A DNA stretch of 64,000 nt from Phycisphaeraceae bacterium (GTDB taxonomy: Bacteria > Planctomycetota > Phycisphaerae > Phycisphaerales > UBA1924): NCBI GenBank assembly GCA_019636675.1, contig JAHBXC010000001.1, positions 1,235,007 through 1,299,006 on the forward strand, in the 5' to 3' direction. The notes beneath the pieces were generated by a model. The model was not told the origin of the DNA and ran no database searches. It was given only the letters and a program-made list of their open reading frames with translations. Position numbers and translations under genes: made by a program. Positions 23,521-33,475 of the stretch are shown here, piece after piece (the first letter of the stretch is position 1; each line of letters begins with the position of its first letter).

Positions 23521-25062
23521 TCACGCGAACTTGCAGACGTGCCAGTTCTTTTTGCCGCGGCGGAGGAGGATCACTTCTCCGTGCAGCAGGTGGTCGCGGG
23601 TGAGGCGGGTGTCCATCGCGGCCTTCGTCTCGCCGTTGACTGTCACGCCGCCGCCTTTGACGAACTCGCGCGCCTGGGACTTGCTCGAGGCGAGGCCGGT
23701 CTCGGCGAGGGCGTCGAGGATCGACCAGCCGTCGGCTTCGAGGATCGAGAAGGCGTGGTCGCTGCTGGGCGCCGCGGCGAAGACCTCGCGCAGCGTGGCG
23801 GCGTCGAGGTGGGCCACCTCGCCGGAGAACAGCGCCTCGGCGGCGGCGTTCGCGCGGGCGACGGCGTCTTTGCCGTGGACGAGTCCGGTCACGGAATCGG
23901 CCAGCGCGCGCTGCGCGACGCGTTTCTCGGGCGCCGCGCCGTGCGCAGCGACGAGGCGCTCGATGTCGGCCTTCGGCAGGAAGGTGAACATCTTGAGGAA
24001 GCGCTCGACATCGGCGTCGGCGGTGTTGAGCCAGAACTGGTGGAACGCGTAGGGCGAGGTGCGGTGGGCGCTCAGCCAGACCGCGCCGGCCTCGGACTTG
24101 CCGAACTTCCCGCCGTCGGACTTGGTGACAAGGGGGGCGGTGAAGGCGAAGGCGTTTTCAGAAAGCGACGAGTCCCGATGGGCTTCGATAGACAATTCTA
24201 ACTTCTGACTAATCAGCCACCGCTCAGTCTCATGATGAGACTGAGCGGGGTCACTCAGGGATACCCAATCAAGTCCAAGCTCTTGGCACTTGAGCCGTGT
24301 CTCATTCATGCTGAAGTGAAATTGTCTCGCAGTACCCGACATCTTCAGGCCAACGAGCACCCGTTCGATTGCCGCGATAATATTGTCAGCCTCGTTCGCT
24401 CTCTCGTTCCCGACTTTGCGAATCAGGTCGCTACCGCCAATGATGTTCCCCCACTGGTCACTCCCGCCGCACTGGACGGTGACGCCCATCTCGCGCGCGA
24501 GGTGGAGGAAGTCGTAGCTCTGGAGGATCTGGTAGGAGAACTCGGTGAACGAGATGCCCTGCTCGCGCGATTCGAGGCGTGACTTCACGGAGTCCTTCTG
24601 CATCATGACATTGACGCTGAAGTGCTTGCCGACCTCGCGCAGGACCCAGAGGAAGGACTTGTCCTTCCACCAGTCGAGGTTGTTCACGATGGTCACGGTG
24701 TCGCCGAGGATTCGCGTGAAGATCTCGCGCTGGCTGGCGATGTTGGCGTCGACCTGCGCGTCGGTCATCAGGGTGCGTTCGGCGGATTTGCCGGAGGGAT
24801 CGCCGATGCGTCCCGTGGCGCCGCCCATGAGGACGATGGGCGTGTGCCCGTGGCGCTGCACGTGGCGCAGGACGGTGATGGGGACAAGGTTGCCGATGGT
24901 GAGCGAGTCGGCGGTTGGATCGAAGCCGGCGTAGACCTTGCGCCCGCCGGTGGCGAAGTGCTCTTTCAGCGCGTTCTCATCGGTGGCCTGGTGGAGCAGG
25001 CCTCGCCAGCGGAGCTCGCTGAGCAGGTCGGGGAAGCCGGTTGTCTCGCTCGGGTGCGGCAT
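23521..25062 (-). CDS. tyrS: Tyrosine--tRNA ligase carrying an ~86-codon in-frame insertion
   Basis: Class I motifs are present: the HIGH-region GFDPTADSLTIGNL, then GGATGRIGDPSGK, GGSDQWGNI, and the KMSKS-type loop KFGKSE. The C-terminal S4-like domain is LSSKSQAREFVKGGGVTVNG. At 513 aa it is well above the usual ~400-430 aa. Confidence 0.95.
   Translation of the reverse strand: MPHPSETTGFPDLLSELRWRGLLHQATDENALKEHFATGGRKVYAGFDPTADSLTIGNLVPITVLRHVQRHGHTPIVLMGGATGRIGDPSGKSAERTLMTDAQVDANIASQREIFTRILGDTVTIVNNLDWWKDKSFLWVLREVGKHFSVNVMMQKDSVKSRLESREQGISFTEFSYQILQSYDFLHLAREMGVTVQCGGSDQWGNIIGGSDLIRKVGNERANEADNIIAAIERVLVGLKMSGTARQFHFSMNETRLKCQELGLDWVSLSDPAQSHHETERWLISQKLELSIEAHRDSSLSENAFAFTAPLVTKSDGGKFGKSEAGAVWLSAHRTSPYAFHQFWLNTADADVERFLKMFTFLPKADIERLVAAHGAAPEKRVAQRALADSVTGLVHGKDAVARANAAAEALFSGEVAHLDAATLREVFAAAPSSDHAFSILEADGWSILDALAETGLASSKSQAREFVKGGGVTVNGETKAAMDTRLTRDHLLHGEVILLRRGKKNWHVCKFA
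24154..24411 (-). mobile_element. Candidate in-frame palindromic insertion element inside tyrS (RPE-like)
   Basis: The 258-nt (86-codon) tract is ~52% G+C by hand count, against much higher GC in the flanks. It is open in the tyrS frame. It carries a 29-nt perfect palindrome. It also has imperfect subterminal inverted repeats: 24160-24172 agaaagcgacgag versus the reverse complement of 24391-24404, agagagcgaacgag. Confidence 0.4.
24220..24248. repeat. Perfect 14+14 nt inverted repeat with a 1-nt spacer inside the tyrS insertion
   Basis: The sequence is ccgctcagtctcat g atgagactgagcgg. Confidence 0.97.
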
Positions 25063-25143: not shown

Positions 25144-26097
25144 TCAGTTGCCGCCGGGGCCGGGGAGTCGCCAGTCGCGGTCGTAGGCGAGGGGCGCCCA
25201 TCGGCGCATGTCGGTCATGTCGTCCCAGGTGAGGTTCTCGGCGTGGCCGTCGAGGTAGACGGTGACGGCCTGCTTCTTGGCGACGGGGAAGGCGCCGAAC
25301 CAGCCGGTCTGGGCGCTGACGCCTGCGCGGGTGGGCGTGCGGAACTGGAAGGCGCTCCAGGACTGCTGTGCCTGCGCGGTGTAGGGCGGCTCGACGTAGA
25401 AGTATCCGTCGCGGAAGCCCTCGGTCTGGATGTTGCTCGCGGCGCTGGTGAAGGCCATGAGCGACGCGGGGCGCGGTGCGCGGTCGAGCCGGGCGACGAA
25501 GAACTCGGGCCCGAAGGTGGCGATGTAGGGGTTGGGTCGGTTCGCGGGCTGCTCGTAGAACTCGCGCCGGCCGGCGATGTAGTAGCTGTTAAGCCCGAAG
25601 CCGGTGAAGACACTCGCGCGGTAGAGCGAGACATCGGCGCTGCCCAGGCGCTCGGCGCTGTTGACCTCGGCGAGGATGGCGCTGTCGCGGATGAGGGTTG
25701 GGAAGGAGAAGTCGAGGTAGGGTCCGAGACGCCAGATCCAGCGAGACGCGTCGACGCCCTCTGGCTCGGCGCCGCTGGGCAGAACGGACCGCGCGGCGCG
25801 GACGGCTTCGGGGAAACGGTTGCTGTTGATGTTGGCCGGGAGCAGGTAGTTCTTGTGGTCGGTCGCGAAGGCGATGTAGGCGGCGCCGGTCTGGCGCCCG
25901 TCGGCGGCTTCGGCGGCGAGCTTGGCGCTCTCACGCGTGGCGCTGAGGGTGGGGATGAGGATGCCGATGAGCAGCGCGATGATGCCGACGACGACGAGCA
26001 GCTCGAGGAGAGTGAAGGCGTCTCGGGCGCGGGTTGTGCCGCGGGTGTGCCGGCGGCGTCGTGCGGCGTGCATGGGGGTCATCGTTCCTGTGCGCAT
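25144..26097 (-). CDS. Prepilin-type N-terminal cleavage/methylation-domain protein, DUF1559-like
   Basis: The leader RARDAFTLLELLVVVGIIALLIGILIP is the class III signal pattern ([FT]TLxEL). The C-terminal YLDGHAENL resembles the conserved DG-H tail of planctomycete DUF1559 proteins. Confidence 0.8.
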   Translation of the reverse strand: MRTGTMTPMHAARRRRHTRGTTRARDAFTLLELLVVVGIIALLIGILIPTLSATRESAKLAAEAADGRQTGAAYIAFATDHKNYLLPANINSNRFPEAVRAARSVLPSGAEPEGVDASRWIWRLGPYLDFSFPTLIRDSAILAEVNSAERLGSADVSLYRASVFTGFGLNSYYIAGRREFYEQPANRPNPYIATFGPEFFVARLDRAPRPASLMAFTSAASNIQTEGFRDGYFYVEPPYTAQAQQSWSAFQFRTPTRAGVSAQTGWFGAFPVAKKQAVTVYLDGHAENLTWDDMTDMRRWAPLAYDRDWRLPGPGGN

Positions 26098-31383: not shown

Positions 31384-31699
31384 GAAGACGTAACGATACG
31401 TGGGGGAAGGGTTGGTTTCCAGCGCCAGCGGCGGGGCGCTGTCGCGCGGAAAAAAACGAACAACGCGCATCTGGAGCGCGCGACGAGGGTTGTCATTCGC
31501 GGCGCGCCGTTGCCGCTGATGGATGTGTCGAACCGTTTGGAACCGGGTGCGAAAGACAGTGCCATCAGTCATGCCATTGCGCGTGATTGTTCGATAGTTC
31601 GCGCGTCGAAAGACGCTCGCGTGTGTGCCGCCCGAAAGCGGCGGTCAAGGAACGGCGCCCCGGTCACGGGCGCGACTCTCTCCTAAACAGGTTGAAACA

Positions 31700-33475
31700 A
31701 TGCGTTTACGAAGCCTCGTCGCCTTGGCAACGGTTTTCGTCCTTTCGTTCGGGGCTGCCGCCGGCTGGCCCCGCCACGACACGAACCGCGACGGCGTCAT
31801 CAACTTCGCTGACCTTTCGCTCGCGGTGCAGAGCGGGGACTACCAGCTGGTGAACATGGTGCTGTCGCACTGGGGCCAGGACGTGCTGTCGCAGCCGACG
31901 GGCAACCCGAACGCGCCCGGGGCGGACGCGAAGGCGATCGCCCGCTGGAACATGGTGCCCTGGCAGACTTTCACGGGCGAGTTCAACGTGGGCGTGGTGG
32001 CGTTCCACATCAACGGGATCGGCGCCGTGTCGTTCAGCGTGAACGGGGGGGCGTGGGTGGATGTGACGGAGATGACGCTGAACCCGGAGTCGGGGACCTA
32101 CGAGTACTGGATCCGCGTGAACGCGGCGGACTACGCGGACGGGCTGGTGGAGATCAGGGCTGTGGCGTTCCCGGTGAACGGGATGCCGCGGGTGCTGGCG
32201 GGGGAGATCGACACCGCAACGATCAAGAACGGCGAGCACTCGATCCTCGTGAACATGAACGCCGGAGGCACGCTGCCCTCGCCTGTCCGCTATGTCTCTG
32301 GCAACGGCAGCGACGACACCGGCGACGGCTCGCGCGACAACCCGTTCCGCACACCCTACTTCGCGCTGCAGAGCATCCAGCACGCCGCTGGCAGCAGTGT
32401 CGCGGACGCCTGCGACGGGGCGATCATCTATTGCCTGCCCGGAGAATACACATGGGGACCGGCGACGAGCCCCAACCCCAGGACACTCAACCGCTGGGCG
32501 ACGATCACGACGGCGCCCGGCGTGAGTCGCGATGATGTTGTTTTCAATAGCTATACAGGCGGGGGTTTCCGCACTCGCCTCATCGCCGCGAAGAATATCC
32601 GGACCGAAGGGGAAATGCTATTCCGATCCACTGGTTCGGAGAAGTTTCTCTGGGTCAACGAGTGCGATGTCATAGGTGCTGGGCGGATCGACGACCGTTC
32701 GCCGCTCAACGGACATGTCTGGACCGGGGTTTGGGTTACGGATACGAGCGTGAGCGATGTCCGTGATGCCGTGCAGCACGCCACTCTCGCACGGAATGTT
32801 CATGTCAACAGAATTAGCTGCGATGCGTTCAGTATGTCCAGGCTCGTTGTGAATAGCACCGTTCACGACATCGATAGCTCCGGGACAGACGCTCACCCCG
32901 ACATCTATCAGTTCAAGGGGAGCGAGAACATCGATAACCACATCGTGTACGGCCTTCGCGCGACGGCGATCCGGGCCCAGGGAATCTTCGCGCGAGGTCC
33001 GGACCGTGTCGACAATATTGCCTTCGTCAACGCGCTGCTCGAGCGATGCCCCTCATTAGAGAGCGCCGGCAGATCCTCTCAGTGGATGGATGTTGCTACA
33101 AATCATTTGCTCTTGATCGGAATCTCGACGCCCAACTATACCTTTGCCTGGCGAACCTCTGACCTGCGCAACATTCTGGTGCGCGGGTCAGTGTTTCACA
33201 AGATGTCCACCGGTGCAACGAGTTCGGGAGGAACCGCGGTGATCTCTGACACTTGGTTCAGGAACAACCATTTCATCGATGTGACTTCCTTCGGTGCGCG
33301 CGTCGCGGGCCTCGACGCCACCACCGGCGACCCGGGCTTTGTGGCTCCCGATGAAGCAGACTACAGGCCGTCCAGTTCGTCCCCGCTCCTGCGTCGTCTC
33401 CCGCCGCTGATGCCAGCCGACACGGCGCACAACGTTCGCCCACCACTGGCGAGCGTTGGCGCCTTCGAGCGCTGA
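31700..33475 (+). CDS. Secreted protein, probable right-handed beta-helix (pectate-lyase-like) fold, with an N-terminal dockerin-like loop
   Basis: The start is ATG 31700, with signal MRLRSLVALATVFVLSFGAAAG. A single Ca-loop-like motif DTNRDGVINFADLS follows. Repetitive N/D/G-rich beta-strand periodicity appears later (NVHVNRISCDAF.., VVNSTVHDID.., IAFVNALLE..). The fold assignment is by eye only. Confidence 0.6.
   Translation: MRLRSLVALATVFVLSFGAAAGWPRHDTNRDGVINFADLSLAVQSGDYQLVNMVLSHWGQDVLSQPTGNPNAPGADAKAIARWNMVPWQTFTGEFNVGVVAFHINGIGAVSFSVNGGAWVDVTEMTLNPESGTYEYWIRVNAADYADGLVEIRAVAFPVNGMPRVLAGEIDTATIKNGEHSILVNMNAGGTLPSPVRYVSGNGSDDTGDGSRDNPFRTPYFALQSIQHAAGSSVADACDGAIIYCLPGEYTWGPATSPNPRTLNRWATITTAPGVSRDDVVFNSYTGGGFRTRLIAAKNIRTEGEMLFRSTGSEKFLWVNECDVIGAGRIDDRSPLNGHVWTGVWVTDTSVSDVRDAVQHATLARNVHVNRISCDAFSMSRLVVNSTVHDIDSSGTDAHPDIYQFKGSENIDNHIVYGLRATAIRAQGIFARGPDRVDNIAFVNALLERCPSLESAGRSSQWMDVATNHLLLIGISTPNYTFAWRTSDLRNILVRGSVFHKMSTGATSSGGTAVISDTWFRNNHFIDVTSFGARVAGLDATTGDPGFVAPDEADYRPSSSSPLLRRLPPLMPADTAHNVRPPLASVGAFER

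Follow-up and report, generated by a model that had tools for sequence, protein, structure and literature searches.

A probable recombination-exchanged, translated and hypervariable cassette at a fixed loop of tyrosyl-tRNA synthetase in Phycisphaerales

The tyrS gene and its extra segment

The tyrS gene, which encodes tyrosyl-tRNA synthetase (TyrRS), was analysed within a 64-kb stretch of the Phycisphaeraceae contig JAHBXC010000001.1, referred to below as the window (positions 1-64000). The gene carries an in-frame segment, hereafter the cassette, that is missing from solved TyrRS structures and from the allele of a sister strain. The positions of the gene, the cassette and the associated features are given in Table 1. 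A preliminary description of this DNA had reported a 513-residue TyrRS with 86 extra in-frame codons; this is borne out, and the limits it placed at 24154-24411 are correct within about three codons.

Pfam recognizes the window TyrRS as a tRNA-synt_1b domain (PF00579) split into two stretches, followed by the TyrRS C-terminal domain PF22421 and an S4 domain (PF01479). The protein matches TyrRS entries of the PDB at E 5e-117, and Foldseek superposes it on TyrRS structures with template modelling scores (TMt) of 0.8-0.9, the CYT-18 structures 1y42 and 2rkj being among the matches. In the alignment to the Bacillus stearothermophilus enzyme (2ts1), query residues 12-220 correspond to residues 2-212 and query residues 303-513 to residues 214-419. 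Query residues 221-302 are unmatched, that is, about 82 residues stand at a place where the solved enzyme has one. None of the solved TyrRS structures matched by PDB alignment or by Foldseek has an insert at this loop.

The cassette occupies the loop between the helix that follows GGSDQWGN and the β-strand ahead of KFGKS, and 15 residues separate its end from this signature. Two residues ahead of its start are R215-K216, aligned to R207-K208 of the B. stearothermophilus enzyme, residues that are reported to contact the tRNA acceptor stem (Bedouelle and Winter 1986).

Table 1. Features of the tyrS locus in the window.
Feature	Position	Strand	Basis and remarks
tyrS, tyrosyl-tRNA synthetase	23521..25062	-	Open reading frame, 513 aa; bacterial type, S4-like C-terminal domain
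KFGKS, class I KMSKS signature (K319-S323)	24094..24108	-	Translation; aligned to KFGKT of 2ts1
Downstream flank (codons for AFAFTAPL), probably co-imported with the cassette	24130..24153	-	Mismatches to L001
Cassette, 86 in-frame codons (G218-N303)	24154..24411	-	No counterpart in solved TyrRS or sister allele
Imperfect subterminal inverted repeat, arm 1	24160..24172		AGAAAGCGACGAG against the reverse complement AGAGAGCGAACGAG
Perfect 14+14 palindrome, 1-nt centre	24220..24248		Inverted-repeat reading; codes for P272-W282, tip of the predicted arm
Imperfect subterminal inverted repeat, arm 2	24391..24404		Partner of 24160-24172
Upstream flank, apparently imported with the cassette; native TyrRS codons (SDQWGNIIGGSDLIRKV), diverged	24412..24460	-	Mismatches to L001
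R215-K216, aligned to R207-K208 of B. stearothermophilus TyrRS	24415..24420	-	2ts1 alignment

Composition and repeats of the cassette

The G+C content of the cassette is 0.516 against 0.686 for the window, in agreement with the low value noted in the preliminary description, and the 250-nt stretch with the lowest G+C content in the 64 kb falls here (0.508; window mean 0.686, standard deviation 0.040). The G+C content at third codon positions (GC3) is 0.58 in the cassette and 0.92 in the remaining part of tyrS.

The perfect 14+14 inverted repeat described earlier is present, and the chance expectation of such a repeat in 258 nt is about 4e-6. It adjoins the low-confidence tip of the structure model (residues 269-273). 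The subterminal inverted repeat also exists, with matches at 12 of 14 positions, but it requires one mismatch and one gap and is marginal (p about 0.03 against shuffled ends). Its two arms pair in the RNA minimum-free-energy fold of the window cassette, which has a z-score of -2.5 to -2.7. Cassettes at the same site in related tyrS genes share these properties to a limited extent: the 14+14 palindrome is confined to the window cassette, with arms of at most 8 nt in every other one, terminal inverted repeats reach p < 0.05 in 4 of 14 cassettes, and fold z-scores of the others are mostly near 0. Terminal repeats and excess folding were therefore rejected as a general cassette trait.

Comparison of the filled and empty alleles

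The closest relative, P0002 (430 aa; L001-L004; at least 8 contigs), is without the cassette although its DNA is about 99% identical to the window over 4.5 kb, with 42 aligned positions that differ. The insert-less form also occurs in P0003, P0006, P0008 and P0014, the nearest relatives, which makes the cassette the derived state. The presence/absence polymorphism that the preliminary description had suggested looking for in sister taxa is found at exactly this site.

Relative to the near-identical insert-less allele, the window has a net gain of 249 nt. The empty allele reads ...ATCCG GCGTGCGGGCGATC ACGCG... (RRAGDHAF) and the filled allele ...CGCAAAGTC(cassette)AACGCC... (RKV...NAF). The filled allele lacks the 14 nt GCGTGCGGGCGATC, and the alignment of the window with the empty allele reveals neither a clean empty site nor a target-site duplication at the cassette.

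The native codons on both sides of the cassette have diverged as well. Upstream, positions 24421-24460 hold 8 mismatches to L001 in 40 nt, mostly synonymous, against a background of 0.006 per nt (Poisson P = 2.7e-10), and identity to L001 is 78% over the proximal 54 nt and 98% further upstream. Additional upstream mismatches are found at 24519, 24523 and 24589, the next one only at 25591, and the imported tract may reach to 24589. Downstream, mismatches occur at 24151 and 24130, then at 24052, and the next only at 23798; identity to L001 is 93% over the proximal 30 nt and 99% beyond. The flank changes are mostly third-position synonymous changes in conserved codons (GGT/GGC, ATT/ATC, CTG/CTC), and synonymous mismatches clustered in this way are the pattern of divergence between orthologues. 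From this alignment we conclude that some 330-460 nt, comprising the cassette and adjoining native codons, appear to have been imported from a diverged tyrS by homologous recombination.

An identical cassette is present in P0125, from an independent Logan assembly, together with 4 substitutions elsewhere in the protein. This is evidence against an assembly artefact, and thus against the chimera that the preliminary description had named as one way in which its proposal could fall.

Searches for further copies, donors or homologues

No other copy of the window cassette was detected in the window by a pattern search with 3 mismatches, blastn or tblastn, nor with blastn and tblastx in related loci totalling 617 kb, nor in PLSDB and the INPHARED phage records by blastn in distant mode. 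With the palindrome core as a query, GTDB representative genomes yielded no second copy, and IMG/VR gave no match to the palindrome. Peptide patterns of the cassette found no match in JGI metagenomes and IMG/VR. A phmmer search against 1.84 billion representative proteins returned 4 weak matches, all of them repeat-protein artefacts. A word-index protein search gave no candidate for the cassette alone, and with the flanks added it gave only short TyrRS fragments with ordinary 14-aa loops; this index seems to prefer candidates near the query length, which weakens its negative results. Nothing significant came from Pfam and PHROGs searches of ten cassettes, the window cassette has no internal promoter- or terminator-like sites, and a literature search found no description of this TyrRS insertion.

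The preliminary description had proposed a selfish element akin to the Rickettsia palindromic elements (RPEs), which form a multi-copy family with a conserved peptide and lie in frame in housekeeping genes (PMC10969869). The tract does resemble an RPE or an intragenic miniature inverted-repeat transposable element (MITE) in being short, compositionally odd, palindrome-bearing and in frame within an essential gene, with a predicted surface excursion as its product. The palindrome, the marginal subterminal repeat that closes the RNA fold and the low fold z-score are all features that a palindromic element transposed in frame into tyrS would possess. RPEs, however, are multi-copy, share a conserved peptide and occupy many unrelated genes, whereas here a single tyrS copy is seen, and no other was found in the window, the related loci or the other collections searched. 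The lack of a clean empty site or target-site duplication, the co-imported flanking codons and the dozens of unrelated sequences at the same site in relatives, most of them without inverted repeats or excess structure, also speak against transposition. Together these observations make an RPE- or MITE-like origin highly unlikely, and the proposal of a selfish element is not upheld.

Translation and predicted structure

The cassette has no stop codon in the tyrS frame, as first described, and 5-8 in four of the other frames; the remaining antisense frame, which had also been described as open, has one stop within 24154-24411. In DNA-level scans, which are independent of gene calling, 160 of the 161 tyrS loci that have both flanking motifs are in frame and contain no stop, the one exception being L090. 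Where homologous cassettes can be compared, they diverge as coding sequences. P0065 and P0109 share a 101-aa cassette with 73% identity, and its differences are distributed 25/13/50 over codon positions 1/2/3, with proportions of nonsynonymous (pN) and synonymous (pS) differences of 0.21 and 0.66, as for coding DNA under purifying selection. The cassettes of L096 and L098 likewise display a coding pattern. From these patterns we infer that the cassette is translated with TyrRS.

The AlphaFold model of the window TyrRS contains helices at 201-240, 245-261 and 276-302, with a pLDDT (predicted local distance difference test) of 55-86 in the cassette. In this model the native helix (201-240) is prolonged by the cassette, which then turns by way of the helix 245-261 and a tip of low confidence before the long helix 276-302 leads back into the strand ahead of KFGKS. 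The structure check suggested in the preliminary description gives a predicted helical arm at the surface, and a similar arm is modelled for P0109, whose cassette is unrelated.

L090 was considered as a frame-breaking insert and rejected, as it is a scaffold gap. The gap (an N run with duplicated flanks, about 2210-2310, in the Phycisphaeraceae metagenome-assembled genome CAZIWA010000019.1) lies exactly at the loop site, which suggests that assemblers break here, perhaps since co-occurring strains carry different cassettes.

Foreign composition, a strong internal hairpin and this assembly break would also be compatible with a tract that is absent from the mature enzyme (an intron, intein or translationally bypassed element) or that arose as an assembly chimera. 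Group I and II introns have a conserved catalytic RNA structure and do not need an open frame; Rfam assigns the window cassette to no family even at E <=10, group I and II introns included, and only the tyrS frame is open. Relatives have inserts of 29-45 aa (87-135 nt), too short for self-splicing elements. Inteins contain a Hint domain, begin with Cys or Ser, end in His-Asn followed by Cys, Ser or Thr, and are some 130 aa or longer. With 86 aa the cassette is shorter; it starts with GNER, has no Hint or intein domain in Pfam, and its N303 is followed by A304 rather than Cys, Ser or Thr. With the codon-position pattern of homologous cassettes and the same cassette in the independent assembly P0125 added, removal of the tract from the enzyme, or its creation by assembly, can be given hardly any credence.

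The loop in Phycisphaerae relatives

The loop delimited by GGSDQWGNxxxGxDL and PLVxKxDGxKFGKS measures 13-107 aa among 106 Phycisphaerae-type TyrRS. Loops of at least 30 aa occur in 43 of these proteins and fall into 32 BLASTP families. Among the matches listed, non-Phycisphaerales TyrRS have nearly all a 14-aa loop, and a few have 15-24 aa. Most of the matches listed from a contig profile scan with the TyrRS alignment, and from a second metagenome scan, were from unrelated bacteria, which served as controls only.

The window cassette has no similarity to the other cassettes (hhalign probability 0.14%; no BLASTP alignment). Deep homology between cassettes, tried with the same two methods, was rejected at the sequence level. 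Close relatives may also differ entirely at this site: the core of L046 is as near to P0065 as that of P0109 is (pN 0.08), and its cassette is unrelated, with 17% identity. Conversely, L007 (nt 930-1589) and L011 (nt 2041-2700) are 100% identical over 660 nt (tyrS nt 541-1200), including a 94-aa cassette, whereas outside this block their identity is 48-98% in 60-nt windows. As in mosaic genes, the flanks are conserved, the centres of close relatives are non-homologous, and divergence is limited to a tract around the centre. The same cassette lies on divergent cores in L007 and L011, which are both short metagenome contigs, and no donor was found for the window cassette.

Some inserts at the same site, a 42-aa family among them, fit the description of a conserved lineage-specific domain. 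The long loops as a whole do not, being divided among 32 families, absent from strains that are 99% identical and, in the window, low in GC3. The preliminary description had allowed that a homologous insert of native G+C content throughout the clade would argue against a mobile origin; what fills the site is mostly a set of unrelated inserts of non-native composition.

An alternative explanation supposes an ancient Phycisphaerales TyrRS domain that changes very rapidly where it stands and has repeatedly been trimmed or lost, with the window allele as an old polymorphism and the cassettes as diverged homologues. It would agree with a site that is filled across the clade, with helical arms of similar topology predicted for two unrelated cassettes, and with insert families that are ordinary in composition and rate. 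In P0065, P0109 and P0022 the cassette pN is a constant 2.6-2.8 times the core pN, which suggests rapid vertical co-divergence, homology being nearly gone by a core pN of about 0.2. Such a domain is nevertheless hard to reconcile with 99%-identical strains that differ by a whole cassette plus diverged flanks, with unrelated cassettes on the close cores of L046 and P0065, and with a window cassette that neither hhalign nor BLASTP links to the others. A GC3 of 0.4-0.58 is also unexpected for an old resident domain, since core GC3 is independent of amino-acid conservation. We regard this explanation as unlikely, though it retains some weight.

Synonymous composition of the cassettes

Of the inserts whose DNA was analysed, 14 long or medium-length cassettes have a GC3 of 0.40-0.58, versus 0.86-0.95 elsewhere in the same genes, with an abrupt change at the downstream boundary and a short shoulder at the upstream one. 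At pooled four-fold sites the cassettes contain A.24, C.17, G.27 and T.33, and the cores A.03, C.57, G.37 and T.03. Intergenic DNA beside tyrS has a G+C content of 0.59-0.75. Relaxed amino-acid constraint was considered as a cause of the low GC3 and rejected, as core GC3 stays high, from 0.91 at invariant columns to 0.87 where variation is greatest.

The cassettes also have a strand asymmetry. At third positions of the coding strand G exceeds C in 11 of 14 cassettes (the window, L005-L013, L046 and L093-L095), regardless of the skew of the core (-0.55 to +0.09), and at the pooled four-fold sites of the cassettes C is the poorest and T the richest base.

For the window cassette, recent import from a donor of lower G+C content would suffice to explain its composition. 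In the conserved cassettes of P0065, P0109 and P0022, and of L096 and L098, low GC3 has been kept between species though synonymous sites have largely turned over. Conserved inserts of native composition exist at the same site (the 42-aa family, L016 and L103). Candidate causes of the lasting low GC3 are that non-homologous alleles are exempt from a recombination-linked force that raises G+C content, that cassettes circulate through hosts of lower G+C content, and that selection acts on the mRNA. The debate over biased gene conversion or selection as the determinant of bacterial G+C content is summarised in PMC11879095.

The first of these candidates belongs to a more speculative account, which we hold only tentatively and think rather doubtful. 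The loop before KMSKS would be a long-lived polymorphism of many non-homologous cassettes, kept by balancing or diversifying selection on an essential cytoplasmic enzyme, for instance by way of a phage or toxin factor docking beside the tRNA acceptor-binding residues. As such alleles are unable to pair, the cassettes would escape the recombination-linked force that brings the remainder of these genomes to a GC3 of about 0.9, and their four-fold sites would be at mutational equilibrium.

Other features of the window

Next to tyrS, on the same strand (25144-26097), is a gene for a protein of about 300-320 aa with a prepilin-type N-terminal methylation motif (FTLLELLVVVGIIALL). This neighbourhood, with the prepilin-type gene upstream of tyrS, is kept in many related loci, where Pfam detects N_methyl.

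On the forward strand, 31625-33475 encodes a secreted-looking protein of 616 aa whose N-terminus has a dockerin-like motif and whose C-terminal half is similar to a β-helix. The gene is compositionally mosaic, with a GC3 of 0.90-0.97 over 31745-32340 and of 0.57-0.80 from about 32500 to the stop, and its low-GC3 part is the second-lowest-G+C stretch of the window. Neither tRNA genes nor Rfam families at the gathering threshold were found in positions 1-64000.

Discussion

The tract in tyrS is probably one allele of a recombination-exchanged, translated and hypervariable cassette that occupies a fixed TyrRS loop in Phycisphaerales. The cassette would have arrived recently in the window strain by homologous recombination with a diverged tyrS allele, and the nearly invariant flanking motifs may act as recombination anchors; at a GC3 of about 0.9, these flanks are near-invariant as DNA too. 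According to the model, the cassette would form a helical arm beside the basic residues R215-K216, and it may be a tolerated or a modulatory appendage of TyrRS. The alternative offered in the preliminary description, a recently acquired foreign peptide module just upstream of KMSKS (here KFGKS), is supported by the composition of the cassette and by the insert-less sister strains.

Several observations weigh against this interpretation. The case for import is drawn from the divergence of the flanks, and neither a donor nor a homologue of the window cassette was found. The window contig could join two co-occurring strains at tyrS, although P0125 speaks against it, and the block shared by L007 and L011 could be a recombination mosaic or an assembly chimera. 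The lasting low GC3 of the conserved cassettes is not predicted by import followed by drift toward host composition. Finally, recombination leaves the palindrome and the marginal subterminal repeat unexplained; these hint at a DNA-level event in the history of the cassette, and a recent template switch is a plausible guess for the origin of the palindrome.

Exchange by homologous recombination is known from mosaic genes with hypervariable centres, such as the central domain of fliC and the streptococcal pbp genes. The tyrS locus resembles them in its conserved flanks, in a centre that is non-homologous, variable in length, atypical in composition and different between close relatives, and in junctions that lie within the flanks. 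The fliC and pbp products are surface antigens or drug targets with an evident selective agent, whereas tyrS encodes a cytoplasmic synthetase, and we know of no such agent for a cytoplasmic aminoacyl-tRNA synthetase. Insertion modules are also familiar in class I synthetases, among them the leucine-specific domain of LeuRS, located just before KMSKS, and the H0, Ins1 and Ins2 insertions of CYT-18, a fungal mitochondrial TyrRS. Like these, the cassette is an extra module of the catalytic fold near KMSKS and tRNA-binding residues that is tolerated in an essential enzyme. Unlike these modules, which are conserved in their lineages and native in composition, the cassette is polymorphic within a species and non-native at synonymous sites, and close relatives carry unrelated ones.

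Aminoacyl-tRNA synthetases are textbook examples of conserved proteins, and their lineage-specific insertions are normally stable and serve as clade markers. Here a fixed site of TyrRS behaves like the variable centre of a surface antigen, being present or absent within a species, replaced between close relatives and represented by more than 30 families. For annotation, low G+C content and a palindrome do not by themselves make an in-frame tract a transposable element. The arm would be a new functional appendage of TyrRS if it touches tRNA or a partner protein. Were the cassettes low in GC3 because they escape a recombination-linked force, their lasting synonymous contrast with the host would bear on the G+C debate (PMC11879095). 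Should the loop indeed hold a long-lived polymorphism, the locus would be a natural reporter for biased gene conversion versus selection in bacterial G+C content.

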